A stretch of 64,000 bases of DNA, taken from contig JAGWBB010000001.1 of NCBI GenBank assembly GCA_021296095.1, positions 20,116-84,115 of the forward strand, read 5' to 3'. The notes beneath the pieces are model-generated. The model was not told where the DNA came from and did not search any database. It saw nothing but the letters and a program-made list of their open reading frames with translations. The stretch's first letter is position 1. The number at the start of each line of letters is the position of its first letter. Positions 2,322 to 41,026 of this stretch are shown here, in pieces. The position numbers and the translations under genes were made by a program. The DNA comes from Desulfurellaceae bacterium (GTDB lineage Bacteria; Desulfobacterota; Binatia; Bin18).

Positions 2322-3287
2322 TTAAAATACGGCCAGCGGATTCACCGGCGAAGCGGTTCCCTTGACCAGCACCAGCGGAGCAATGACCGACAGAAACGTC
2401 CAGCGCGAGCGCTGGGCGCAGGCCAGGGCGACAGCCTCAAGGTCGCAGTTGTCTATCAGGTGCAGGCCCATGGCTACAATCGTGACGGCATGGATGGGCA
2501 GCAGCAGCTTTTCATAGCCGCTGGGCAGCACATCGCTGGCGCCGTCGCCGGCCATGGCGGCCACTTCGCGGGCGTGCAGCCACGGCAAACAGGCCGCCCC
2601 AAGCCCAGCCATGCCGTCGTTGAACGAGTCCCACGGCCCGGTGGCTTTCAGCCGCGCGTGGCGTCCGGTGCGGACAAACAGCACGTCCCCGCTCTCGACC
2701 CGAAAGCCGCCGGCCTGTTCGGCCTGGTCAAGATCGGCCGGGGTGATTTCCTCTCCGGGTTCGAGCCACTCCTTGCCCTTCAAGCGGGGAATGTCGATCA
2801 GCACGCCCCGAGACACGATCCCGTCTTTGAGCGCGTCGATAGCGCCGTTCTGGGCGCCCTTGGCCCCGACATCCTCTGACGGATAGCCGTTATACATCTG
2901 GCCCTTGTGGAAGACGTGGCACAGCGCGTCGAGGTGGGTGTTGGCCAGGCCGTGGGGGGCAATCGCAAAGTAGTCGGCGCTGTACGGAATCGGCGCGGCA
3001 CTACTCTCTTCTTTGGACCCGGTCTGCATCATGAGGTGCATCACCGGGGTCGGATTATCAGGACCAGGTTCGGTCGCCAGGGGCAGCGACATGGACACGG
3101 CCTGCCCGTCCTGGATGAGGGCCGCGGCCTGGGCCCGCTTTTGCGGCGTAATATAGTTGAGCGCCCCCAGCTGGTCGCCCTGACCCCATTTGCCCCAGTT
3201 GCTGAGGCTGGTGAAAAACTCGTTGACTTGTGCTTCGCTCAGATCACGGTTGGCTGCCATAGCCGTCCCTCCTTTGGCCGGCATCAT
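2322..3287 (-). CDS. putative cyclase-family protein (arylformamidase/kynurenine formamidase-like)
   Basis: Sequence similarity pattern to cyclase family (PF04199-like); exact start uncertain (internal Met possible). Confidence 0.55.
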   Translation of the reverse strand: MMPAKGGTAMAANRDLSEAQVNEFFTSLSNWGKWGQGDQLGALNYITPQKRAQAAALIQDGQAVSMSLPLATEPGPDNPTPVMHLMMQTGSKEESSAAPIPYSADYFAIAPHGLANTHLDALCHVFHKGQMYNGYPSEDVGAKGAQNGAIDALKDGIVSRGVLIDIPRLKGKEWLEPGEEITPADLDQAEQAGGFRVESGDVLFVRTGRHARLKATGPWDSFNDGMAGLGAACLPWLHAREVAAMAGDGASDVLPSGYEKLLLPIHAVTIVAMGLHLIDNCDLEAVALACAQRSRWTFLSVIAPLVLVKGTASPVNPLAVF

Positions 3288-3389: not shown

Positions 3390-4124
3390 ATGGATCTGTT
3401 GACTCGACTCACGGACGCGCTGGCCGCCTACGGACTGAACCTGATCGGCACGACGAGCCGGGCGGCCTACGAGGCGCTCGTGCCCGCCACCTACGGCCTG
3501 GAGCCGCTCCTGGCGCAGACCCGAAGCGTTATCGTCATCGGCAACGGAGGGGGCGCTTTCTGGACCGGCTTCCGCCCCTATGCGACCCGTCATGCGGACG
3601 ACCCGCACCCGCTGGATGACTACACGGTCGAAGTCGTCGAACGCAGCCTGACGCCGATTCTGGCATCCTCGGGTGCGCGGTACCGGTATGCCTATCCGTT
3701 TCGTTTTTGGACCGAGCCGGTCTCGTTCATGCACCTGGCTCAGGCCGCAGGTCTGGCCGGGCCAAGCCGGCTGGGCATCATGCTTCACCCGGTCTACGGT
3801 CCGTGGCTGGCTCTGCGCGCTGCGGTGCTGCTTGACCGAGACCTCCACCTCCCGCCCCCGGCAGCGGGCTTTGATCCCTGCCCTGACTGCGCCGAAAAGC
3901 CCTGCATCCAGGCCTGCCCGGCGGGTGCGGTCAGCGCCGGGCGCGGCTGGGATATTCAGGGCTGCGTTCAATATCGGCTGACGGCCAGCCAGGACTGTGC
4001 GGACGCATGTCACGCCCGCTACCAGTGCGTGTACGGCCGGCAGCACCGCTATCCGCCAGACGCCCTGCGCTACCACCAGGCCCACAGCCTGGCCACCATG
4101 CGAAAGTATAGGGAAGACACGTAG
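3390..4124 (+). CDS. hypothetical protein with C-terminal Cys cluster (C-x2-C-x4-C-x3-C-P, Fe-S-like)
   Basis: ORF 2907..4124 is trimmed to the in-frame ATG at 3390 (MDLLTRL...) to avoid overlap with the convergent cyclase gene; motif 'CPDCAEKPCIQACP'; the antisense ORF 3309..4085 is judged spurious. Confidence 0.4.
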   Translation: MDLLTRLTDALAAYGLNLIGTTSRAAYEALVPATYGLEPLLAQTRSVIVIGNGGGAFWTGFRPYATRHADDPHPLDDYTVEVVERSLTPILASSGARYRYAYPFRFWTEPVSFMHLAQAAGLAGPSRLGIMLHPVYGPWLALRAAVLLDRDLHLPPPAAGFDPCPDCAEKPCIQACPAGAVSAGRGWDIQGCVQYRLTASQDCADACHARYQCVYGRQHRYPPDALRYHQAHSLATMRKYREDT

Positions 4125-4169: not shown

Positions 4170-4778
4170 CTAGGCCTTGGCGCTGGGCCGTGCCGACACG
4201 GCTTCATGCCAGCGGGCCAGATTTTTCTGCTCCGGAGCAATGCCGATCTTCGACACCCGCCCGAAATCAACCGCGCACAGGGCGGTAATATCGGCCACGC
4301 TGAAGCGTTCGCCGGCGACAAACTGCCGGTCGGCCAGGACCTCATCGAGCCAGGCCAGATTTTGGACGGCCCGCCGCTTGGCCACCTCGGCATACTCTGG
4401 GCACTGCTCGATGCGACCCTTGAAAAACGCGTGGTGTTGACGGAACGAATCGGCAATCGGCAGCAGGAGTTCAAACTCCATGCGGCGGTCCCACATGGCC
4501 ACCACGGCCCGGTCGGTGGCATCAACGCCCAATAGCGGCGGCTCGGGCTGGATTTCTTCAAAATAGCGGCAGATGGCGGCGCTTTCTGCAATACAGGTGC
4601 CGTCGTCCAGCTCCAGCACCGGCACCGTGCCCATGGGGTTTTTCTGCCGGAACTCAGCCTGACGGTTGACCGCGTTCATAATATCAACTTCCTCGAACGG
4701 GACATCGAGCCCTTTTTCGGCCACAAAGATGCGGACCCGGCGCGGGTTGGGGGCGGCTTTGCTGTCGTGAACTTTCAT
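4170..4778 (-). CDS. glutathione S-transferase family protein
   Basis: GST N-terminal thioredoxin-like fold pattern 'RVRIFVAEKGLDVPFEEVDI...NPMGTVPVLELDDGTCIAES'; start set at MKVHDS, preceded by AAGGAGGA RBS. Confidence 0.75.
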   Translation of the reverse strand: MKVHDSKAAPNPRRVRIFVAEKGLDVPFEEVDIMNAVNRQAEFRQKNPMGTVPVLELDDGTCIAESAAICRYFEEIQPEPPLLGVDATDRAVVAMWDRRMEFELLLPIADSFRQHHAFFKGRIEQCPEYAEVAKRRAVQNLAWLDEVLADRQFVAGERFSVADITALCAVDFGRVSKIGIAPEQKNLARWHEAVSARPSAKA

Positions 4779-4903
4779 ACCATCCTCCTTGCTGAAGTCT
4801 GGGCTCAACCTATACCAGCCGATACACCGGAGCTAGACGGGCGGGCTGAGACCGCTTCCGACGGAGCCCGATGTAGGCTATGCTTCGCCCCAGGAGACAT
4901 CCT

Positions 4904-5965
4904 ATGCCCCTGCCCGACCCGATCCTGCAATCCGAAGCCTTTGAGTTGAGCGACGCCGTCCAGGTCAACGAGTTCTACCAAGACAAGGGCTGGACCGATG
5001 GCTTGCCTATTGTCCCGCCCACCGCCTACGGGGTAAGCGCCTGTCTGCGGGCGGCGGGACTCAGCCCAGACACGATCATCGGCATCGAACGCGTCCGGCA
5101 GCGGCCCCTGACGGCCGAAAAAGTGGCCATCAACGCCGTCATGGCGGGCTGTCTGCCCAGCTACATGCCGGTCCTGGTCGCCGTCCTGCAAGCCATGTGC
5201 GAGGAGCCGTTCAACCTGCACGGCAGCACGGCCAGTACCGGCGGCAGCGCCCAGTGCATTGTGGTCAACGGTCCCATCCGCCAGACCCTGGGCATGAACG
5301 CCACCCATAATGTGCTGAGCACCGGCAATCGGGCCAATGCGACGATTGGCCGGGCGGTGCGCCTGGTGCTGATCAATGTCCTGGGCTGCGTGCCCGGCCA
5401 GTTGGACCGCTCCACCCTGGGCCATCCGGGCAAGTATTCGCTGTGTCTCGCCGAAGACGAGGAGGACAGCCCGTGGCTGCCGCTGGCCCAACAGCGCGGC
5501 GTGGCCGAGGGCATGTCAGCCGTCACCGTCATGGCCTGCGAATCGCCCCGCCAGACCATGAACGAGTGGACCCACGACCCCGAGGAAATCGTCGAGACCT
5601 TTGCCGCTGAGATGCGTCACAATATGCTGACCTACTCGATCTGGCCGGGCAACTACGGGCTGGTCATTCCCAAACAGCTGCGCGAGTTGCTGGCTGCGGC
5701 CGGTTGGCAGAAACACGACATCCAGGAGTATGTGTACCGCCGCGCCCGGGTCAGGCGGAGCGACTGGGCCGGCGTCGGCAAGGCCGCTATCGTCAACCGG
5801 GGCGGCGGACCGGACCAGGAATTTTGCGCCTTGCGCACCCCAGAGGATCTGCTGGTGGTTGCCGCAGGCGGGCCGGCGGGCGGCTTTGGCGCGGTCGTGC
5901 CGCCCTGGCTGGGGTCCAAGGCGCTGGCGGTGACCAGGCCGGTCACACCGTCGGGAGGAGAATAG
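4904..5965 (+). CDS. conserved hypothetical protein (first gene of selenoprotein operon)
   Basis: Start set at MPLPDP with AGGAGA RBS 7 nt upstream; ends 5 nt before the selenoprotein gene; no family recognised by eye. Confidence 0.5.
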   Translation: MPLPDPILQSEAFELSDAVQVNEFYQDKGWTDGLPIVPPTAYGVSACLRAAGLSPDTIIGIERVRQRPLTAEKVAINAVMAGCLPSYMPVLVAVLQAMCEEPFNLHGSTASTGGSAQCIVVNGPIRQTLGMNATHNVLSTGNRANATIGRAVRLVLINVLGCVPGQLDRSTLGHPGKYSLCLAEDEEDSPWLPLAQQRGVAEGMSAVTVMACESPRQTMNEWTHDPEEIVETFAAEMRHNMLTYSIWPGNYGLVIPKQLRELLAAAGWQKHDIQEYVYRRARVRRSDWAGVGKAAIVNRGGGPDQEFCALRTPEDLLVVAAGGPAGGFGAVVPPWLGSKALAVTRPVTPSGGE

Positions 5966-5969
5966 GCGT

Positions 5970-6494
5970 ATGAGTATCCGCGTTCTGAGTCCGACCTTTG
6001 AGCAAGCCGTGGACCAAAACGGACGGGTGCCGCGTCTGACCTCGTTGCACGGCTGCACCCTGGGGCTGTTGGACAACAGCAAAATCAAAGTCCGCGAGCT
6101 GCTCGACCATGTGGAGGAGCTGCTGCGGACCGAGTATGGCGTGGCCCATGTCGTGCGGCTCAGAAAGCCCGACGCCAGCCGGCCCGCCCCCCCAGAGCTG
6201 GTGACCGAGATGGCGCGCTGTGAGGCCGTCATCTCGGCCGTCGGCGATTGAGGCAGCTGCTCGTCGTGCAGTTTGCACGACGCCCTGAGCGCTGAAAAAG
6301 CCGGCGTGGCGGCCACCGCCATCATCACCGACCGCTTTGTCCAAACCGCCCAGGTCATGGCCCGGGTTTCGGGCATGGCGGATTATCCGTTCGCCGTGAT
6401 TGCCCACCCGATCGCCAATAACAGCCAGACCGTGCTGCGCGACAAGGCCCAACAGGCGCTGCGCCAGTGTGTGGAGCAGCTGGTGCAGGGCTAG
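5970..6494 (+). CDS. UGSC-motif selenoprotein (in-frame UGA at 6249-6251 read as selenocysteine)
   Basis: ORFs 5970..6251 and 6273..6494 are in the same frame, separated only by TGA; readthrough gives '...AVISAVGD-U-GSCSSCSLHDAL...'; a SECIS-like hairpin lies immediately 3' of the TGA; GGGAGGAG RBS upstream of the 5970 ATG. Confidence 0.75.
6249..6282 (+). promoter_or_regulatory. Sec-UGA codon plus bacterial SECIS-like hairpin (CGTCGTGCA-GTT-TGCACGACG)
   Basis: Perfect 9-bp inverted repeat at 6262-6270/6274-6282, starting 11 nt after the UGA; the apical loop contains G-U; this geometry matches the bSECIS placement requirement. Confidence 0.6.
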
Positions 6495-6497
6495 GCC

Positions 6498-7205
6498 ATG
6501 GCTTTGAAGAAAGTGCCCGCCAAGAGCGGTAAACACGCCCTGCGGGAGGAATCCATCCTCCAGGCTGCGGCCGCCTGCTTTGGCGAGCACGGCTACCGTG
6601 CCACCACCCTGGAGATGGTCGCCGAGCGGCTCGACATCTCGCGGGTGACCCTGTACCGCTACTGTCCGAGCAAAGAAGAACTGCTGATTCGGGTCTTTGA
6701 GCGCTCCATCGCCATCTTCCAACGCGGCCTGCGCCACATCTGCGAACAAGACATTCCGCCGGCCGAAAAACTGCGCCAGATCATCCGCCATCAAGTCCGT
6801 CTGATGGCCGATCACCGCAATTTTCTGACCGTCTACTTCAGCGAAGAGGGCAATCTGCCGCCCGACATGGCCGAGCGCTCGCGGGCCGAGCGACGGGTCT
6901 ACGATGGGCTGATCGAGGGGGTGATTCGCCAGGGCGTGGAATCCGGCCAGTTTGCCCGCCTGCCGGTCAAGCTGCTGTCGTTCGCCATCCTGGGCATGTG
7001 CAACTGGCTGTACCAGTGGTACCAGCCCGACGGTCCGCTGGCTGCGGATGAGGTGGCGCGGATCTTTATTGACCTCGTCGAGCACGGCTATCTGCGCGAT
7101 GACCCGCAGCACGAACTGTTGTCCGGCCTGGAGCGGGTCGAAAAAACCCTGAGTTCCCTCCAGCAGCAGCTCCAGCCCGCCTCCCGTTCCGACCCACCCG
7201 CCTGA
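6498..7205 (+). CDS. TetR/AcrR-family transcriptional regulator
   Basis: N-terminal HTH 'TTLEMVAERLDISRVTLYRYCPSKEELL'; starts 4 nt after the selenoprotein stop. Confidence 0.85.
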   Translation: MALKKVPAKSGKHALREESILQAAAACFGEHGYRATTLEMVAERLDISRVTLYRYCPSKEELLIRVFERSIAIFQRGLRHICEQDIPPAEKLRQIIRHQVRLMADHRNFLTVYFSEEGNLPPDMAERSRAERRVYDGLIEGVIRQGVESGQFARLPVKLLSFAILGMCNWLYQWYQPDGPLAADEVARIFIDLVEHGYLRDDPQHELLSGLERVEKTLSSLQQQLQPASRSDPPA

Positions 7206-7277: not shown

Positions 7278-7892
7278 ATGCACGGAGCCGGGGGAGTGGA
7301 AACCGTTGAAGCCCGGGTCGAGCGGCCAGACGCCGGGCAGCTGGAGCTGGAACACCGCTTCGGGCTGCTGGTCGGCTCCCATCGGGAACGCGCCAGACGC
7401 CTGGCTTGGCGGCTAGTCGGCGGCGACGCCGAGGCGGCCGAGGACATCACCCAGGACGCCTTTGTCAGGGCCTATCAGCGGCTTGGCACGTTTCGGCACC
7501 AGGCCCGCCTCGAGACCTGGTTTTATCGCATCCTGGTCCGCCAGGCTCAGACCTACCGTCGCTGGCGTGCGGTGCGCGACCGCTGGCAGCAGGTGTGGAA
7601 TCCGTCCGTCCCCGAACACGCTCCACAGCCGAGCGGGACGGCTCCGGAGGACACTGATCCTTTTGTCAGGCAACGCATAGCCGCAGCGCTGGAACATCTG
7701 AGCCGCAGTCAGCGCGAGGCGTTTGTCCTGGTCCATCTGGAAGGATTCACCGTTCGTGAATGTGCCGAGCTGATGGGCAAGCCCAGCGGGACGGTCAAGA
7801 GCCATCTGCACCGCGCCCTCGGCCGTTTACGGACCGAGCTGGCCGACCTCAGCCCGTTGGAGGCTGGGCCGGCCACGGAGCACGACCGATGA
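7278..7892 (+). CDS. RNA polymerase ECF-type sigma-70 factor
   Basis: Region 2 'AEDITQDAFVRAYQRL' and region 4 HTH 'LSRSQREAFVLVHLEGFTVRECAELMGKPSGTVKSHLHRALGRLR'. Confidence 0.85.
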   Translation: MHGAGGVETVEARVERPDAGQLELEHRFGLLVGSHRERARRLAWRLVGGDAEAAEDITQDAFVRAYQRLGTFRHQARLETWFYRILVRQAQTYRRWRAVRDRWQQVWNPSVPEHAPQPSGTAPEDTDPFVRQRIAAALEHLSRSQREAFVLVHLEGFTVRECAELMGKPSGTVKSHLHRALGRLRTELADLSPLEAGPATEHDR

Positions 7893-8332
7893 GTACAGCG
7901 TCCACACACCGGTCGCCCGGGCAGACAGACACGGAGTTTGTCACACGCCTGGCCGACCACTATGCCCCGCCCCCCCTCAGCCCAGGCCAGCGGGCCGCCT
8001 GGGACGCGAGGCTCGCCGCCCGGCTTGAAACGCGACGCCGGGCGGCGCTCCTTCCCGGGCTGGCAACGGCCGCGCTCGCCACCGCGCTGGTGTTCGGTCT
8101 GGGCGGGTGGTTTGGGTTTGAGTCGGGCGACCCGCCGGTCCGCCCTGCCCCGGTGGTGTCGGCCACACAAACGCGGACACTTGTCGTGTCTGCGGAAGAT
8201 TCGGTATCTGACCTCCCGGACGACTGGGAGTATCTGCTGGCCTTGCAGCCGGCCGACGAAGAAGAGGCTGAGCAGCCCGGGCTGCTACCGGACGACTATG
8301 CGGCGATCGCAAGCATTTTTTTGGAAAGCTGA
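7889..8332 (+). CDS. putative anti-sigma factor (single-pass membrane protein)
   Basis: ATGA start/stop overlap with the sigma gene; one hydrophobic helix 'LLPGLATAALATALVFGLGGWFGF'; positional logic for sigma/anti-sigma pairs. Confidence 0.55.
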   Translation: MSTASTHRSPGQTDTEFVTRLADHYAPPPLSPGQRAAWDARLAARLETRRRAALLPGLATAALATALVFGLGGWFGFESGDPPVRPAPVVSATQTRTLVVSAEDSVSDLPDDWEYLLALQPADEEEAEQPGLLPDDYAAIASIFLES

Positions 8333-8348
8333 AGTGAAAGGAGAGAAT

Positions 8349-8957
8349 ATGTATCGTGTTGTGTGTGTGTGCGTACTGCTGCTCGGGCTGAGTGTCCCCG
8401 AGGCCAGCGGCGAACAGCCGGGACGGTCTCGGCACGCCGGTCCTCCGGCCGCGCGTTTTATCGAAAAACACGCCGAGCAGCTCGGGATTGACGAAACCAC
8501 CCGGCAGGCCATCCAGAGCCTGGTCGAGGAGGCGCGGGCCAGGGGGCGGGAAATCCGCACTTCCCTGAAGCAGGCGCGGACCGAGATGCGCGGGCTGCTG
8601 GAGCAGGACAGCCCGGACGAAGCCGCGGTCATGCAGCACGCCGAACGGATCGGCGCGCTGCGAACCGAGATCCGCAAAAACCGCCTGCGGGCGATGTTGC
8701 AGATTCGGGCTCTACTCAGCTCGGAACAACGTCAAGCCCTGACCGCACTACGCCAGGAAAAACGCCCCGGTCGCCGGCGAGGGGGACGGTTTGGCGCGTG
8801 TCGGACCAATCTTGCCGAGCTGTGCCCCGAGGCCGGGCCGGGCCGGGCCTCGCTGCAATGTCTCAGCGACAACTGGGCTGCCCTGTCCCCGGGCTGTCAG
8901 GCCGTGTTTGAACGCGGCCGGCATCGGGGCAAACGCAGATCGGAACGGCCGGACTGA
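8349..8957 (+). CDS. periplasmic Spy/CpxP/ZraP-like (LTxxQ) protein with Cys-rich C-terminal domain
   Basis: GAAAGGAGAG RBS; signal-peptide-like N-terminus 'MYRVVCVCVLLLGLSVPEASG'; helical 'LTALRQE' LTxxQ-like repeats; C-terminal 'C...LC...C...C' cluster. Confidence 0.55.
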   Translation: MYRVVCVCVLLLGLSVPEASGEQPGRSRHAGPPAARFIEKHAEQLGIDETTRQAIQSLVEEARARGREIRTSLKQARTEMRGLLEQDSPDEAAVMQHAERIGALRTEIRKNRLRAMLQIRALLSSEQRQALTALRQEKRPGRRRGGRFGACRTNLAELCPEAGPGRASLQCLSDNWAALSPGCQAVFERGRHRGKRRSERPD

Positions 8958-8968
8958 GCCGCGCCAGC

Positions 8969-10450
8969 CTATTGCCCGGACTGCTCCGGCGGCGTAGCGG
9001 ACGACGCGGTGTGGCGGCCGGCCGTCCCGGACGGATTGGTATAGATATCGTTGAGCTGTTGGACGCAGCGGTCGGCCTCGGCCCGGACCTTATCGACGGT
9101 CGCCCGGGTCTGGGCATTCCAGGTCGCCGGTTCGGTGCGAAAAATACTCCGATACCAGCGCGTGCTGTGCTGAAAGGCCTCGACCAGATTGTCTACATGC
9201 TGGTCGGCCTGGTCTCGACGCAAGGCGGTGATGATCCGCTCACGCACCCGGCGGCGAACCTGCCAGTGTCCATAACCGGCCACGACAGCCACCACACCCA
9301 GGCCCCCGCCCCCCAGGCCGAGGAGCAGCTCGCCAAGGCCGAACCAAGCCAGCAGCCCGAGCAAGACCAGCCCCCCTCCGAGCAGTAACCCGTCCCGCCA
9401 CACGACCCCTGTCCGCCAGCCGCGCAGCATGGCCCGCAATTGGGGAATCAGCTGTCGCTCCAGCTCGTTCGCCGAGCGCTCCAGGGTTCCCACCACACGG
9501 TAGGCCTGGGCGGTCCGCACCTGCTGAATACGGGCCTGGATTTCGGCGTGGTCGTGTTCGCGCAGCGCCTCGTACCGGGCCCGGACCTGGGGGTCGGCAA
9601 TCGGGGGCGCCGCCGAGCGGCTGTAGGTGTGATAAAAACGCCCGGCGGTCAGGCCCTTCTGGGCCAGGCCGCGCTGCCAGGCGGCCACCACCTGTTCGGC
9701 GTTGTCATCCTGGGCGGTCGCATCCAGGTGGTTCAGTATGTACAGAAATTTGCTGGAATCCGCCCGCCGGATCGTCTTCTCGACCAGATGCTCAAGCGTA
9801 TCCCGCATCGAGCCCGCTTCTGGGTGGCGGGCATCAAAAAAAACCAGCACCAGGTCGGACAGGGCGACGATGTGGTCGGTCAGACGCAGCACCGCGGTGC
9901 GTTGCTCGTCCGCGTCAAAGCCGGGGCTGTCAATAAAAATCCGGCCCCGAACCACCTGGCTGGGGCAGGTTTTGAGCTGGAGATAGGCGTCCATGCGCTC
10001 GCCCTCGCCCGGTGCCGAGGCCTCAAGCTCGCGGCTGATTTTGTAAAACGGGAAGCGTGGGTCGGCGTCCAGCGCCAGGGCTGGGAGCGCCCGGACCTGG
10101 GCGTCCTGGCCGTAACACACGACGGTAAACTTGTCGTCAACAGCCTGGTTGCCGGTCAGCTGTAAGGGATAGTCGAGATAGTCGTTGAGGAAGGTCGATT
10201 TACCGGCCGAATACGTCCCCAGAACAGCGATGATCGGCCACCACGGCACCTGACGGGTGTAGGACTCGGCGGGCGAGAAAAATCCCAGCCGGCGGGCGAC
10301 GCCATCCAGTTTGCGCAGGCCGGCCACCACGGCCAGAAAGACCGCTCCCTCCTCTTCCAGTTCGTTCTGGATATGTGTCTCAAGAGCCGCCTCAAGACGG
10401 TCCGGGTGAGCGGTCTTGCGTCCAAACAGCACGCGGGCTTCCCCTGCCAC
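8969..10450 (-). CDS. dynamin-like / HSR1-type GTPase with C-terminal transmembrane segment
   Basis: G1 'GTYSAGKST', G3 'DSPGF', G4 'NHLD'; hydrophobic stretch 'LLLGGGLVLLGLLAWFG'; start placed at an in-frame GTG downstream of the RND stop (the ORF-track start at 10612 would overlap the RND gene by ~100 nt). Confidence 0.5.
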   Translation of the reverse strand: MAGEARVLFGRKTAHPDRLEAALETHIQNELEEEGAVFLAVVAGLRKLDGVARRLGFFSPAESYTRQVPWWPIIAVLGTYSAGKSTFLNDYLDYPLQLTGNQAVDDKFTVVCYGQDAQVRALPALALDADPRFPFYKISRELEASAPGEGERMDAYLQLKTCPSQVVRGRIFIDSPGFDADEQRTAVLRLTDHIVALSDLVLVFFDARHPEAGSMRDTLEHLVEKTIRRADSSKFLYILNHLDATAQDDNAEQVVAAWQRGLAQKGLTAGRFYHTYSRSAAPPIADPQVRARYEALREHDHAEIQARIQQVRTAQAYRVVGTLERSANELERQLIPQLRAMLRGWRTGVVWRDGLLLGGGLVLLGLLAWFGLGELLLGLGGGGLGVVAVVAGYGHWQVRRRVRERIITALRRDQADQHVDNLVEAFQHSTRWYRSIFRTEPATWNAQTRATVDKVRAEADRCVQQLNDIYTNPSGTAGRHTASSATPPEQSGQ

Positions 10451-10506
10451 TGAGACACCAGAGCGGTGTGGTGTGCGCCTGCCCCGAGCGTCGCCTGCCT
10501 GGTGCC

Positions 10507-12933
10507 TCAGGCGGCGGCCTGGGCCAACCGCTTGGTGATAAAGCCCGGCTTGAACAGCGCGATCAACACCGGCAGCAGGGTCATCGTGGCCAGAAAACTC
10601 ACCCCCATCCACAGCGCCAGCAACAGCCCCATCTCGCCGCTGAAACGCAGGCTCGACATGGTCCAGAACAGGGTCCCAAGCACCATGGTCAGGGCGGTAA
10701 AGGTGACCGCCTTGCCCGAGGTGACCAGCGCCCGCAAGACGGCCGTGTCCAGCGTTTCTCCGGGCTGTTGTTCCTCGATAATCCGGCTGACGATGTACAA
10801 GGCATAGTCAATGCCAAAGCCGACCCCGACCGTGACGACCGGCAGGGTATGGATGTTGATGCCGATATCCCGCGCTCCCATGTAGGCGTTGATGATCGCG
10901 TTGGCGACCAACAGCGGCAGGATCATGTATACCCCCGCCAATAGCGACCGGTAGGTCACCACCAGGATGAGAAAGATCGTGCCAAAGCCGAGGATGTTGA
11001 CCAGAATGTCGTTTGTGAGCAGCTCCTCATTGGCCGCAGCCAGCACCCCGATCGGTCCGCCGGCCAGACGGAAGCGGGCGGTCTCCAGGGGGTTGGCGGC
11101 AATATACTCGCGGGCCCGCTGGATGATCCGACGCACGGTATCGCCCTTGTGGTCGGTCAGGTAAAAATGGATGGGCGCGTGGCGGAACTGATAGTCGATA
11201 ACCCGCGCGCTCTCGCTGTGCGAGACGCCAAAGAAGTAGCCCGAGATCGCCATCAGCACCTGGGTGCGGGACCGGGGCAGGACGTTCCACTTTGGATCGC
11301 CGGTGCCGTTGACCGCGCCCAGGATATCGACAAACGAGAAACTCGCGCCGACCGCCGGATCGCGCTCCAGATAGCGCTGGAAGCTCTCAATCCAGGGTAA
11401 GACCTCGGGGTTCATCAGCGACGGCTGCGAGTCGCGCCGCTCCAGGATTTCCCGGGCGCTCAAGCCTTCCTCAGACGCGCCGGTGTCTTGGGGCAGGGTG
11501 CGTTCGGCCATGACCATCAGGTTTTCCACCCCGCCAAAGGTTTCCTGAATGCGGGCATGGGCGGTGTTGTACGGAGAGTCGCGGTACAGCAGGGGCGAGA
11601 TCGCGCTGGGATCGCCGATGACGAGGTGTTGCCAGAAATAGACGCTGCCGACCATCAGTCCCAGCCAGGTGGCCAGGGTCAGGGCCTTGCCCGCCGGCGA
11701 CAGCAGGACTGCGGCCAGGCTGCTCAGGGTGCGCTTGAACACTCCCTCGTTGCGTTTGAGGACAATCCGCACGTCGGGTTCGCGCAGATAGTGATAGACG
11801 ATCGGATTGAGCAACAGCTCACTGATCGTAATGGCCAGGATCCACACCGCGGCACTGATGGCCAGCTTCTGGAGCAGCACGATGGGGACGAACAGGATGA
11901 CCAGCACCCCCAGTGCATCGGTTAGAATGCCCGACAGGGTCGGCACGAACAGCTGAGCAAAGGCGGCCACAATCGCCGGTTCCTTCTGCCAGTCGGCCTT
12001 CTGATATTCCTCGTAATAGCGCTCGTGCATCTGCACCGAGTGGCTGACCGCCCGGGCGGTAATGAAAAACGGGATGACCAGCGTCAGCGGGTCAAGGCTG
12101 AAGCCGATCATCTTGATAAAGCCCAGCCCCCAGATGGCCGACACCACCCCGGTGATAGTCGGCCGCAGGGCGCCCCGGATGTCGTGGAAATACAGATACA
12201 GACAGAGCCACATCAGGAAGGTGGTTGCCAAAAAGATCCAGTACACCTGCGTGGCGTAGTAGTACACCCAGCCGTACAGCGCCGGGTGGCCGGCAACGTG
12301 GATGGTCGTGTTGTCGTCGCTGAACGGCTCGACCACCGCGCCCATGACTTCGTCAAACAGCCGCCGATGATCGATCCGGCCCTCGATAAACGTGGCTTGC
12401 AGCAGGGTGGCTTTTTCGTCGAGCGATACCAACACCCCGTACAGATTGGGGGTGGTGTAGACGATCTCCCGCACCCGGCGCACATCGTTCTCGTTCTGCG
12501 GGGCGCGTTCCATGATCGGCTCGATCTCGGTCAGGCCGCCGCCCTTGAGCTGGATACGCCGGTTGGTTCGGTGGGCTAGAGAGTTAATCAGGTCGTGGTT
12601 GACGCCGTAGATCGTATCGAGCCGCTTGGTCATCTCAAAGACCTTGCCCAGCGTCTCACGGGTAAAGATGGTCCCTTCCTTGACCTCCAGCATGATCTGG
12701 AGTGTATTCGCTCCGCCGACCTCTTCGGCATATTCGTTATGGGTCTGGATGAACTCGTGATCCTGCGGCAGCTGTTCGTCAAAACGGGTGATCAGATCGA
12801 GTTGAAAGGCAAAGGCGGCAAATATCAACGTCGCCACCGCAACGCCGCTCAAGACGATCTTGCGCCGCGCGATCAGCTGTTCGCCGAGGCGGTACAGAAA
12901 AGCCTGGTCTGTGTTCTGCTCTGTTTCACTCAT
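10507..12933 (-). CDS. RND-superfamily exporter (MMPL/HpnN-like), 12 TM with two large periplasmic loops
   Basis: 808 aa; two repeats of (TM + large soluble loop + 5 TM), typical of RND/MMPL permeases. Confidence 0.75.
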   Translation of the reverse strand: MSETEQNTDQAFLYRLGEQLIARRKIVLSGVAVATLIFAAFAFQLDLITRFDEQLPQDHEFIQTHNEYAEEVGGANTLQIMLEVKEGTIFTRETLGKVFEMTKRLDTIYGVNHDLINSLAHRTNRRIQLKGGGLTEIEPIMERAPQNENDVRRVREIVYTTPNLYGVLVSLDEKATLLQATFIEGRIDHRRLFDEVMGAVVEPFSDDNTTIHVAGHPALYGWVYYYATQVYWIFLATTFLMWLCLYLYFHDIRGALRPTITGVVSAIWGLGFIKMIGFSLDPLTLVIPFFITARAVSHSVQMHERYYEEYQKADWQKEPAIVAAFAQLFVPTLSGILTDALGVLVILFVPIVLLQKLAISAAVWILAITISELLLNPIVYHYLREPDVRIVLKRNEGVFKRTLSSLAAVLLSPAGKALTLATWLGLMVGSVYFWQHLVIGDPSAISPLLYRDSPYNTAHARIQETFGGVENLMVMAERTLPQDTGASEEGLSAREILERRDSQPSLMNPEVLPWIESFQRYLERDPAVGASFSFVDILGAVNGTGDPKWNVLPRSRTQVLMAISGYFFGVSHSESARVIDYQFRHAPIHFYLTDHKGDTVRRIIQRAREYIAANPLETARFRLAGGPIGVLAAANEELLTNDILVNILGFGTIFLILVVTYRSLLAGVYMILPLLVANAIINAYMGARDIGINIHTLPVVTVGVGFGIDYALYIVSRIIEEQQPGETLDTAVLRALVTSGKAVTFTALTMVLGTLFWTMSSLRFSGEMGLLLALWMGVSFLATMTLLPVLIALFKPGFITKRLAQAAA

Positions 12934-39223: not shown

Positions 39224-41026
39224 CCCTTTTTCGCCAACCCGCAGCAGAGCCAGAAAAGCGTCCTGGGGAATCTCAACCCGTCCGACTTGCTTCATACGCC
39301 GCTTCCCCTCTTTTTGCTTTTCTAGCAGTTTTCGCTTACGGGTAATATCCCCTCCGTAGCACTTGGCGGTGACGTTTTTGCGCAGGGCTTTGACGCTTTC
39401 ACGGGCGATGACCTTGTTGCCGATGGCCGCCTGGACCGCCACCTCAAACATCTGGCGCGGAATCAGCTGGCGCATTTTCTGGACCAGCTCACGCCCCCGG
39501 CTGTAGGCTTGATCGCGGTGGACGATCAGCGACAGGGCATCCACGATGTCGCCGTTGATGCGCACGTCGAGCTTGACCAGATCGGCCGGCCGGAGGTCAA
39601 GCAACTCGTAGTCGAGCGACGCATAGCCCCGGGTGACCGACTTGAGGCGGTCGTGGAAGTCAACCACGACCTCATTGAGCGGCAGCTCGTACAGCACCAT
39701 GACGCGTTGGGGGGCTGGGTATTTCAGCTCGCGCTGGACGCCACGCCGTTCCTGACACAGCTGCAGGACGTTGCCGAGATAATCGGTCGGGACGTGGATG
39801 GTGGCCAGAATGAACGGCTCTTCAAGCGCCGCAATCTCCTGGACCGGGGGCAATAGCGCCGGATTATCGACGAGCAGCGAGTCGCCGTCCAGCGTCCGCA
39901 CCCGGTATTCAACCGTCGGCGTGGTGGTGATCAGATCCAGACCAAACTCACGTTCCACGCGCTCCTGGACGATTTCCATGTGCAGCAGGCCCAAAAAACC
40001 GCACCGGAAGCCAAACCCGAGCGCCAAAGAACTCTCTTTTTCATAGCTCAGCGAGGAGTCGTTCAGCCGGAGTTTTTCCATGGCATCGCGTAGCGCGTCA
40101 TACTGGTGGGACTCGACCGGATAGAGGCCGCTGAACACCATCGGCTTGACCTCCTTGAAGCCGGGCAAGGGCTGTCGGGTCGGTCGCTCAGCGTCGGTAA
40201 TCGTATCCCCGACCCGGGCCTCGGTCACCGTCTTGATGTTGGCCATCACAAAGCCCACCTCGCCGGGCCCCAGCGCGGACACGGCCAGCGGCCGCGGGGC
40301 AAACACGCCGATCTGGCCGACCTCGTAGACCATGCCGGTTGATACGAACTGGATGCGCATCCCGGCCCGCAGCACGCCGTCAAAGACACGCACCTGGACC
40401 ACCGCTCCCTGGTAGGGGTCAAACCAGCTATCGAACACCAGGGCGCTGAGCGGCCGCCGGGCGTTGCCCTGAGGCGGGGGAACCGTCTGGACAATCCCTT
40501 CCAGCACGTCGAGAATCCCGCGTCCGTGTTTGGCGCTGGCCAGAACGGCCTCGCTGCCGTCCAGACCGATCACGTCCTCCAATTCGGCTCGCACGCGCTC
40601 GGGGTCGGCGCTAGGCAGGTCTATTTTGTTGATGACCGGCAGAATTTCCAGCGAGTGGTCCAGGGCCAGATAGGTATTGGCCAGGGTCTGGGCTTCCACC
40701 CCCTGGACGGCATCAACAACCAGAACGGCGCCCTCGCACGCCGACAGGCTACGCGAGACCTCATAGGAAAAGTCAACATGGCCGGGGGTATCGATCAGAT
40801 TCAGGCAGTAGGTCTCGCCGTCCTGGGCCTGGTAGCCGAGGCGCACCGTCCGCGCCTTAATCGTAATCCCCCGCTCCTGCTCCAGATCCATGGTATCCAG
40901 AAACTGGGTCGCCTCTTCGCGTTCGCTGATTGAGCCCGAATATGACAGCAGCTTGTCGGCCAGCGTCGATTTGCCGTGATCGATGTGGGCGACAATGCTG
41001 AAGTTGCGAATCAGGCTGCTGTTCAT
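39215..41026 (-). CDS. lepA: translation elongation factor 4
   Basis: '[22 protein letters not shown]' and full-length LepA pattern. Confidence 0.95.

Follow-up and report, generated by a model that had tools for sequence, protein, structure and literature searches.

A UGSC-family selenoprotein and a conserved orphan protein form a near-obligate gene pair: a candidate two-protein selenoenzyme module from a Desulfurellaceae bacterium

With which protein does a selenoprotein of the UGSC family work, and to what end? The question is raised by a locus within a stretch of 64,000 nucleotides from contig JAGWBB010000001.1 of a Desulfurellaceae bacterium, the whole of which is called the window here. 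At positions 4904-5965 of its forward (+) strand lies the gene of a 353-amino-acid (aa) orphan protein, referred to below as X, and at 5970-6494 (+) that of a 174-aa UGSC-family selenoprotein with selenocysteine (Sec) at residue 94. An initial annotation had combined these two genes with the TetR-family regulator gene behind them into one operon of shared function. Comparison across genomes retains the shared function for X and UGSC, which may together constitute a selenoenzyme module, and removes TetR as a conserved third gene.

The pairing was evaluated in 83 loci, 80 from a scan of one genome per species and 3 from look-ups of exact proteins; three of them end just past X, which leaves 80 that can be evaluated. 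UGSC is found downstream of X on the same strand in 78 of these 80 and within 5 kb in 79. Of the two exceptions, one carries UGSC 2.5 kb away on the opposite strand, and the other has none within 5 kb. The hosts of X loci include Candidatus Binatia, Burkholderiales, many Alphaproteobacteria, Chloroflexi, Acidimicrobiales, Anaeromyxobacter, and SAR324. In a tblastn search of plasmids and chromids, X was present in 24 records, and UGSC was adjacent or fused to it in all ten that were opened, which come from cultured organisms, haloarchaea included. Clustering of all open reading frames (ORFs) of the 83 loci yielded no third universal neighbor, only variable catabolic and transport genes. One close relative (L004) encodes an X 94% identical to that of the window in identical synteny. 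Together with the gene fusions described below, these data strongly support X and UGSC as a near-obligate pair with a shared function.

Fusions are frequent. Among the best 150 representatives of the X family, at least 20 are fused to UGSC sequence, in both orders (UGSC-X and X-UGSC). Some are complete proteins of about 530 aa with a Cys-type UGSC ahead of X, and others carry the post-UGA half of UGSC ahead of X or the pre-UGA half behind it; these half-UGSC forms represent Sec-containing fusions that gene callers ended at the UGA. Many database entries for "X" of about 420-460 aa are likewise Sec-type fusions truncated at the UGA. The same 150 representatives include 4 X homologues with an N-terminal Redoxin/AhpC-TSA domain bearing a CPTC or CPTS motif, 1 with the catalytic domain of ferredoxin-thioredoxin reductase (FTR), and about 5 X-X tandems. 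The remotest X relatives among the annotated plasmid loci (29% identity), from Vibrio europaeus (L087) and Sporomusa termitida (L088), are UGSC-X fusions too. Both lie beside genes of aconitase X and DUF126, with an enolase gene also nearby in V. europaeus and genes of an electron-transfer flavoprotein and a FAD oxidoreductase in S. termitida. A 2008 survey mentions a fusion of UGSC to a domain named "Unknown_1" (PMC2398784), whose identity with X could not be confirmed.

The selenoprotein gene runs from an ATG at 5970 to a TAG at 6492-6494, and an ORF list shows it as two pieces, 5970-6251 and 6273-6494, which are in frame across a TGA at 6249-6251. Translated with cysteine in place of Sec94, the protein matches Pfam PF24696 over residues 5-172 (E-value 2e-52, 178 bits against a cut-off of 25) and NCBIfam NF041046 (133 bits against 125). 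Its motif reads GD-U-GSC-SSC-SLHD. In the 83 related loci, drawn from genomes and metagenomes, TGA occupies the Sec position in 82 of 82 UGSC copies, within an invariant GD-U-GSC; homologues lacking the TGA, from Arthrobacter, Roseovarius, Variovorax, haloarchaea, and a few metagenomic proteins, have cysteine there instead. On this sequence evidence the middle gene is a full-length member of the UGSC family with a genuine selenocysteine codon, in agreement with the selenoprotein called in the initial annotation. Were the TGA a true stop, the locus would hold two small unrelated ORFs or a pseudogene, and public gene callers do give ORFs of 93 and 73 aa. We regard that explanation as barely credible, given that both halves fit a single Pfam model end to end, that the TGA is invariant and its TGA-less counterparts have cysteine, that a hairpin downstream of it is conserved, and that selA and selB adjoin several of the loci. 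In public protein sets, for instance the gene tables of L001-L003 and L091-L096, nearly all calls break UGSC at the UGA into a 93-aa and a ~63-73-aa ORF or omit the second half, and one entry (P0271) reads the UGA as tryptophan (GDWGSC).

The hairpin resembles a selenocysteine insertion sequence (SECIS) and spans 6262-6282 (+). Its 9-bp stem (6262-6270 paired with 6274-6282) is closed by a GTT loop, begins 10 nucleotides (nt) past the UGA, and overlaps codons S98-D104; its folding energy in context corresponds to z = -2.7, and it is present in 76 of 76 distinct orthologous sequences. Covariation (G-C to A-T) was detected at two stem pairs that fall on synonymous sites (Fisher p = 0.001 and 0.04), with no significance at synonymous sites that are not partners; the p-values take no account of phylogeny and serve as support only. 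With a stem-loop near the UGA, a G in the apical loop, and conservation among orthologues, the hairpin has the properties expected of a bacterial SECIS element and is a good candidate for one. An Rfam scan of the window matched no family, this hairpin included. The peptide encoded there, SSCSLHD (codons S98-D104, 6261-6281), is invariant in Sec-type UGSC, and Cys-type homologues diverge at it (SSCTLSD, SSCSVFD, TSWCVYD, TAATVYD); its conservation probably reflects in part the overlapping hairpin. No tRNA, selA, selB, selD, or tRNA-Sec gene was found in the 64-kb window. The single tblastn match to SelB in the window (about 40514-40999, reverse (-) strand, 31% identity) covers the N-terminal GTPase domain only and presumably belongs to another translational GTPase.

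UGSC has been described as a selenoprotein of unknown function with a "likely Trx-like fold" (PMC2398784), and it is listed without function in selenoproteome surveys from 2007 to 2026 (PMC1976440, PMC2398784, PMC5029168, PMC9312934, PMC13188914); none of the literature searched assigns it a function, papers on the selenoprotein merely listing the family. A predicted model of a natural Cys-type UGSC-X fusion suggests a different fold, Rossmann/flavodoxin-like rather than thioredoxin-like, with the UxxC placed after a β-strand in a Rossmann-like domain. A thioredoxin fold with CxxC at the N-terminus of helix 1 was looked for in UGSC and not found. Throughout the family the motif keeps its first Sec/Cys, and the other cysteines are not universal, with the monothiol variants CGTS and CPTS occurring and UxxCxxC being the form in the subfamily of the window. 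That the first residue alone is universal, and that monothiol variants exist, would point to a nucleophile and not to a metal site. The window gene resembles the published family in its motif, its Sec position, its scores above the cut-offs, and the dominance of the Sec form. The published account records no association other than the "Unknown_1" fusion, and here a partner (X) and a recurrent reductase resembling thioredoxin reductase (TrxR) are defined.

The partner X is as poorly described as UGSC itself. The initial annotation recognized no family in it, and this stands: X has no Pfam or NCBIfam match, 47 diverse members share no recurrent Pfam family at E-values up to 10, and profiles of the X family found nothing among PDB sequences. 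Its homologues carry the RefSeq/PGAP label "hypothetical protein". They are numerous: a word-indexed search returned at least 8000 matches, with identities of 73% or more throughout the best 120, the named sources among the best matches being Entotheonellaceae, Tectomicrobia, Binatia, and "Deltaproteobacteria" (top matches about 75% identical), and an exhaustive HMMER scan collected 4894 clusters at 50% identity (E ≤ 1e-3). Across 79 representatives of 35-60% identity, the conserved core comprises DGLP (32-35), PPT (38-40), T70, N77, AGC (81-83), GP (123-124), R143, N145, G149, R150, N158, C181, E184, and W191. The three motifs quoted by the initial annotation are real and lie at residues 29-40, 79-94, and 106-124. 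C83, which sits in a loop just ahead of a predicted helix, and C181 are the sole conserved cysteines, each present in about 95% of 79 diverse members. In Foldseek, no PDB structures other than class I fumarate hydratases from Leishmania match below 1e-3 (E = 4e-4, probability 0.5-0.7, template-modeling (TM) score ~0.2), followed more weakly (E 0.03-0.8) by Toblerone-fold hydrolases and MmgE/PrpD. As far as this evidence goes, X belongs to an undescribed family without an assignable fold class. Its gene is taken to start at the ATG at 4904, with an AGGAGA 5 nt upstream, and to stop at 5963-5965; a longer ORF is possible from an in-frame ATG at 4880, and 4904 is preferred because the N-termini of homologues align with it. 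A second, divergent X paralogue (33-37% identity) is present in L014, L016, L017, and L078, with its own Sec-type UGSC in L014, L017, and L078, and the Halalkalicoccus locus (L097) has the order X-UGSC-X. These second X paralogues indicate several sub-specificities within the family.

The neighborhoods of the pair offer a candidate source of electrons for UGSC. A gene for a TrxR-like flavoprotein, with CxxC in those that were read, lies within the fetched locus in nine cases, five from cultured organisms and four from metagenome-assembled genomes (MAGs). The gene orders are phosphosulfolactate-synthase-like, trxB, trxA, X, UGSC in Arthrobacter sp. ERGS1:01; LysR / X, UGSC, trxB in Roseovarius sp. 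THAF8; trxB, TctC, SDR, X, UGSC in Variovorax sp. SRS16; and UGSC, X, TrxR-like gene in Haloterrigena turkmenica. In V. boronicumulans, a TrxR-like gene and TctC accompany a UGSC-X fusion. The window lacks a TrxR-like gene, and since none is encoded near the pair, the reductase in this genome is presumably the housekeeping TrxR.

Genes of the Sec machinery form another group of neighbors: among the related loci, 8 have selA next to X-UGSC and 4 have selB there. Paracoccus ferrooxidans (L086) has a Sec-type UGSC with an in-frame TGA, then X, with selB close by; an X homologue was also found in P. versutus. Such "selenium islands", with selA and/or selB beside X-UGSC, recur in Burkholderiales MAGs (L021, L025, L028, L037) as well as in P. 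ferrooxidans, and those of L021 and L037 additionally carry a TrxR-like gene. The proximity of selA and selB suggests that in these organisms UGSC may be a principal user of the Sec machinery. Most other neighbors of X-UGSC belong to carboxylate catabolism and transport. The commonest among the 83 loci are family III CoA-transferases (23) and TctC-type receptors (17), and short-chain dehydrogenases/reductases (SDRs), LysR regulators, TRAP transporters, and SelA also recur; in Natrinema and Halalkalicoccus, UGSC-X lies beside CoA-transferase genes. Three unrelated loci (Natrinema L084, Arthrobacter L085, and L055) contain, at a distance of up to ~5 kb from X-UGSC, a gene similar to that of phosphosulfolactate synthase (ComA), possibly a sign of organosulfonate metabolism. 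Genes for TauD-like and luciferase-like monooxygenases are recurrent in a few of the loci.

How might the two proteins work together? We give about an even chance to the proposal that 4904-6494 encodes a two-protein selenoenzyme module in which UGSC is a redox carrier and X, once reduced by UGSC, acts on the substrate. Such an enzyme is probably linked to thioredoxin reductase and dependent on selenium, to judge from gene context. A TrxR-type flavoprotein would take electrons from NAD(P)H and hand them on, directly or by way of thioredoxin, to UGSC, from which they would reach X and finally the substrate. In UGSC, Sec94 with Cys97 as the resolving residue would alternate between selenol/thiol and selenenylsulfide states. 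C83 and C181 of X would perform the substrate chemistry or be recycled after it, and that chemistry would most likely be the reduction of a small anionic metabolite of the carboxylate or CoA-ester type. TetR would be a lineage-specific regulator co-transcribed with X-UGSC. The exchange of UGSC for generic disulfide-reducing modules in some fusions suggests that the protein being reduced is X. What we infer from such patterns is which way the electrons flow, how C83 and C181 take part, and what class of substrate is involved; the conserved arginines and the transporter and CoA-transferase neighbors might indicate an anionic organic acid or CoA ester. The same logic, a catalytic protein with conserved cysteines that is reduced by a CxxC/UxxC partner and is sometimes fused to it, is known from methionine sulfoxide reductases, ArsC, and peroxiredoxins, where monothiol partner variants occur too. 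X differs from these thiol-dependent reductases in sharing no sequence family or convincing fold with them, and its usual partner does not have a thioredoxin fold.

Several observations weigh against this proposal. TrxR-like genes adjoin the pair in a minority of loci only. C181 is missing in at least one distant fusion, that of Variovorax boronicumulans. The proximity of CoA-transferase and TctC genes may be coincidental, as they are very abundant in these taxa. Finally, Sec dominance in UGSC is strong (TGA in all 82 copies here; 255 Sec against 21 Cys forms in the Global Ocean Sampling (GOS) data, PMC2398784), and such dominance is more typical where a selenoprotein acts on a substrate than where it simply carries electrons.

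It is here that the main rival to an electron relay takes its start. Glycine and D-proline reductases (Grd and Prd) proceed from a selenoether to a selenenylsulfide that is reduced by thioredoxin, and grd operons have the layout trxB-trxA-grdE-grdA-grdB. By analogy, X would bind and activate the substrate, the selenol of UGSC would attack a carbon or heteroatom to give a selenoether-type intermediate, and Cys97 would then resolve it to a selenenylsulfide for reduction by the thioredoxin system. The order trxB-trxA-X-UGSC in Arthrobacter mirrors the grd layout, and UGSC-X and Grd/Prd systems alike combine a small Sec protein with a U/C-xx-C motif and a larger substrate-specific protein, with thioredoxin-system genes in the operon in some genomes, though for X-UGSC not in the window. 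Sec outweighs Cys in UGSC as it does in GrdA, GrdB, and PrdB (Table 2 of PMC2398784), PrdB is inactive after a U-to-C substitution (PMC11229817), and the placement of UxxC after a β-strand in a Rossmann-like domain is shared with the GOS PrdB-like sequences. These likenesses are not accompanied by detectable homology. Alignment of UGSC with a profile of 12 PrdB-like GOS sequences by hhalign gave a probability of 0.5%, and no GRDB (PF07355) or Gly_reductase Pfam match was found in UGSC (24 members) or X at E-values up to 10. The idea of UGSC as a miniature GrdB/PrdB, suggested by the strand-U-x-x-C-helix likeness, was rejected as homology on these grounds and is kept as an analogy only. A pyruvoyl-forming self-cleavage site is not evident in X, and the pyruvoyl subunit GrdE/PrdA (PF09338) is not a recurrent Pfam match in the 47 diverse X members at E-values up to 10. 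The hosts differ as well, X-UGSC being found mostly in aerobic heterotrophs and haloarchaea, and Grd/Prd in Stickland fermenters. The replacement of UGSC by domains of the Trx fold or FTR type is hard to square with a specialized attacking selenol, and Grd/Prd-like cleavage is on balance unlikely.

The Foldseek matches raise an alternative of another kind, that X is a carboxylate hydro-lyase or isomerase with a remote likeness to MmgE/PrpD or to the class I Fe-S dehydratases of fumarate and tartrate. UGSC and its Trx- or FTR-like substitutes would then deliver no electrons to the substrate; they would ligate, assemble, or redox-repair a metal or Fe-S center of X, or maintain its catalytic thiols in reduced form. 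Besides the structural matches to fumarate hydratases and, more weakly, to Toblerone-fold hydrolases and MmgE/PrpD, the aconitase X genes next to the Vibrio and Sporomusa fusions and the UxxCxxC of the window subfamily are compatible with such a role. X nevertheless has only two conserved cysteines and no Fe-S or metal-binding Pfam signature, and many homologues lack the third cysteine of the UGSC motif, some of them the second as well. Compared with class I Fe-S hydro-lyases (PF05681), the TM score is about 0.2, an hhalign comparison of X with a TtdA/FumA-N alignment gave a probability of 0.2%, and X does not conserve the three cysteines that ligate the cluster. We consider a hydro-lyase improbable. 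Slightly lower still stands the explanation closest to the initial annotation, a dedicated, TetR-controlled operon of three genes for selenium-dependent detoxification, working with the neighboring glutathione S-transferase (GST). Its gene, divergent from X at 4170-4808 (-) and identified by Pfam GST_N/GST_C, does lie just upstream on the opposite strand as had been noted, and the regulator gene (6498-7205, +; ATG 6498, stop 7203-7205) does follow UGSC closely. The gaps are 4 nt between X and UGSC (5966-5969) and 3 nt between UGSC and TetR (6495-6497), a trivial correction of the 5 and 4 nt first given, and no promoter-like or terminator-like site was found on the + strand between the three genes, internal sites having been named as evidence that would separate them. 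Relatives with an X of 87-97% identity moreover share the synteny GST/X/UGSC/TetR.

Conservation of the three-gene neighborhood was the other check that the initial annotation had named beforehand, and here TetR fails. It stands behind UGSC only in the closest relatives (L004, L091-L094); among the first 83 loci (L001-L083), the 82 besides L004 all lack it, an unrelated NTP_transf_2/HEPN pair having taken its place already at 84% X identity. GST is limited to the same small clade: it is kept in L004 and L091-L095 (X at least 84% identical) and absent beyond. An inverted repeat, as a candidate TetR operator, was looked for in the GST-X intergenic region (4809-4903) and none was detected. The contexts elsewhere suggest organic-acid catabolism and transport more than detoxification. 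"Candidate selenium-dependent redox system" remains a fair description. The confinement of TetR and GST to a close clade indicates that the conserved unit is one of two genes, not three. The regulator itself contains TetR_N (PF00440, 1e-15) and TetR_C_24 (PF17932, 8e-37), without an equivalog-level NCBIfam match, and is a clade-specific addition.

Further genes surround the locus. Downstream of TetR lie, on the + strand (7278-8957), an ECF sigma factor (7278-7892), a probable anti-sigma ORF, and an LTXXQ/Metal_resist (CpxP/Spy-like) protein, convergent with a dynamin-like GTPase gene (8969-10612, -). This block is syntenic with X-UGSC-TetR in the close relatives L004 and L091-L093. Upstream, between a cyclase-family gene (2322-3287, -) and GST, a 244-aa ORF at about 3390-4124 (+) without a Pfam match carries a ferredoxin-like cysteine motif, CPDCAEKPCIQACPAG; counterparts of 245-250 aa are called but unannotated in L092 and L095.

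Several features of the system appear to be undescribed: the near-obligate partnership of UGSC with a conserved orphan family, the alternative fusions to reductase domains, the linkage to TrxR, and the non-thioredoxin fold, for which the predicted Rossmann/flavodoxin-like model would correct the assumption made so far. Family X is large (~4900 clusters at 50% identity) and is missing from Pfam and NCBIfam. As UGSC almost never occurs without X and is often fused to it, as ordinary disulfide-reductase domains can substitute for it, and as TrxR genes travel along, the function of the pair becomes directly testable. It occurs in cultured organisms, namely Paracoccus ferrooxidans, Roseovarius sp. 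THAF8, Arthrobacter sp. ERGS1:01, Variovorax, and haloarchaea with natural Cys forms. X-UGSC would be a kind of thiol/selenol redox-relay enzyme system, and there is a real chance that its chemistry is new. A bolder possibility, which we put forward tentatively and hold to be well short of even, is that X and UGSC represent a categorically new selenoenzyme, in which an orphan-fold catalytic subunit, a Sec carrier without the thioredoxin fold, and a dedicated TrxR-like flavoprotein would reduce an organic acid or organosulfur compound for which no enzyme is known. Such an enzyme might explain why the machinery for selenocysteine is kept at all in many aerobic bacteria of soil and sea, among them Binatia, Burkholderiales, Alphaproteobacteria, and SAR324.

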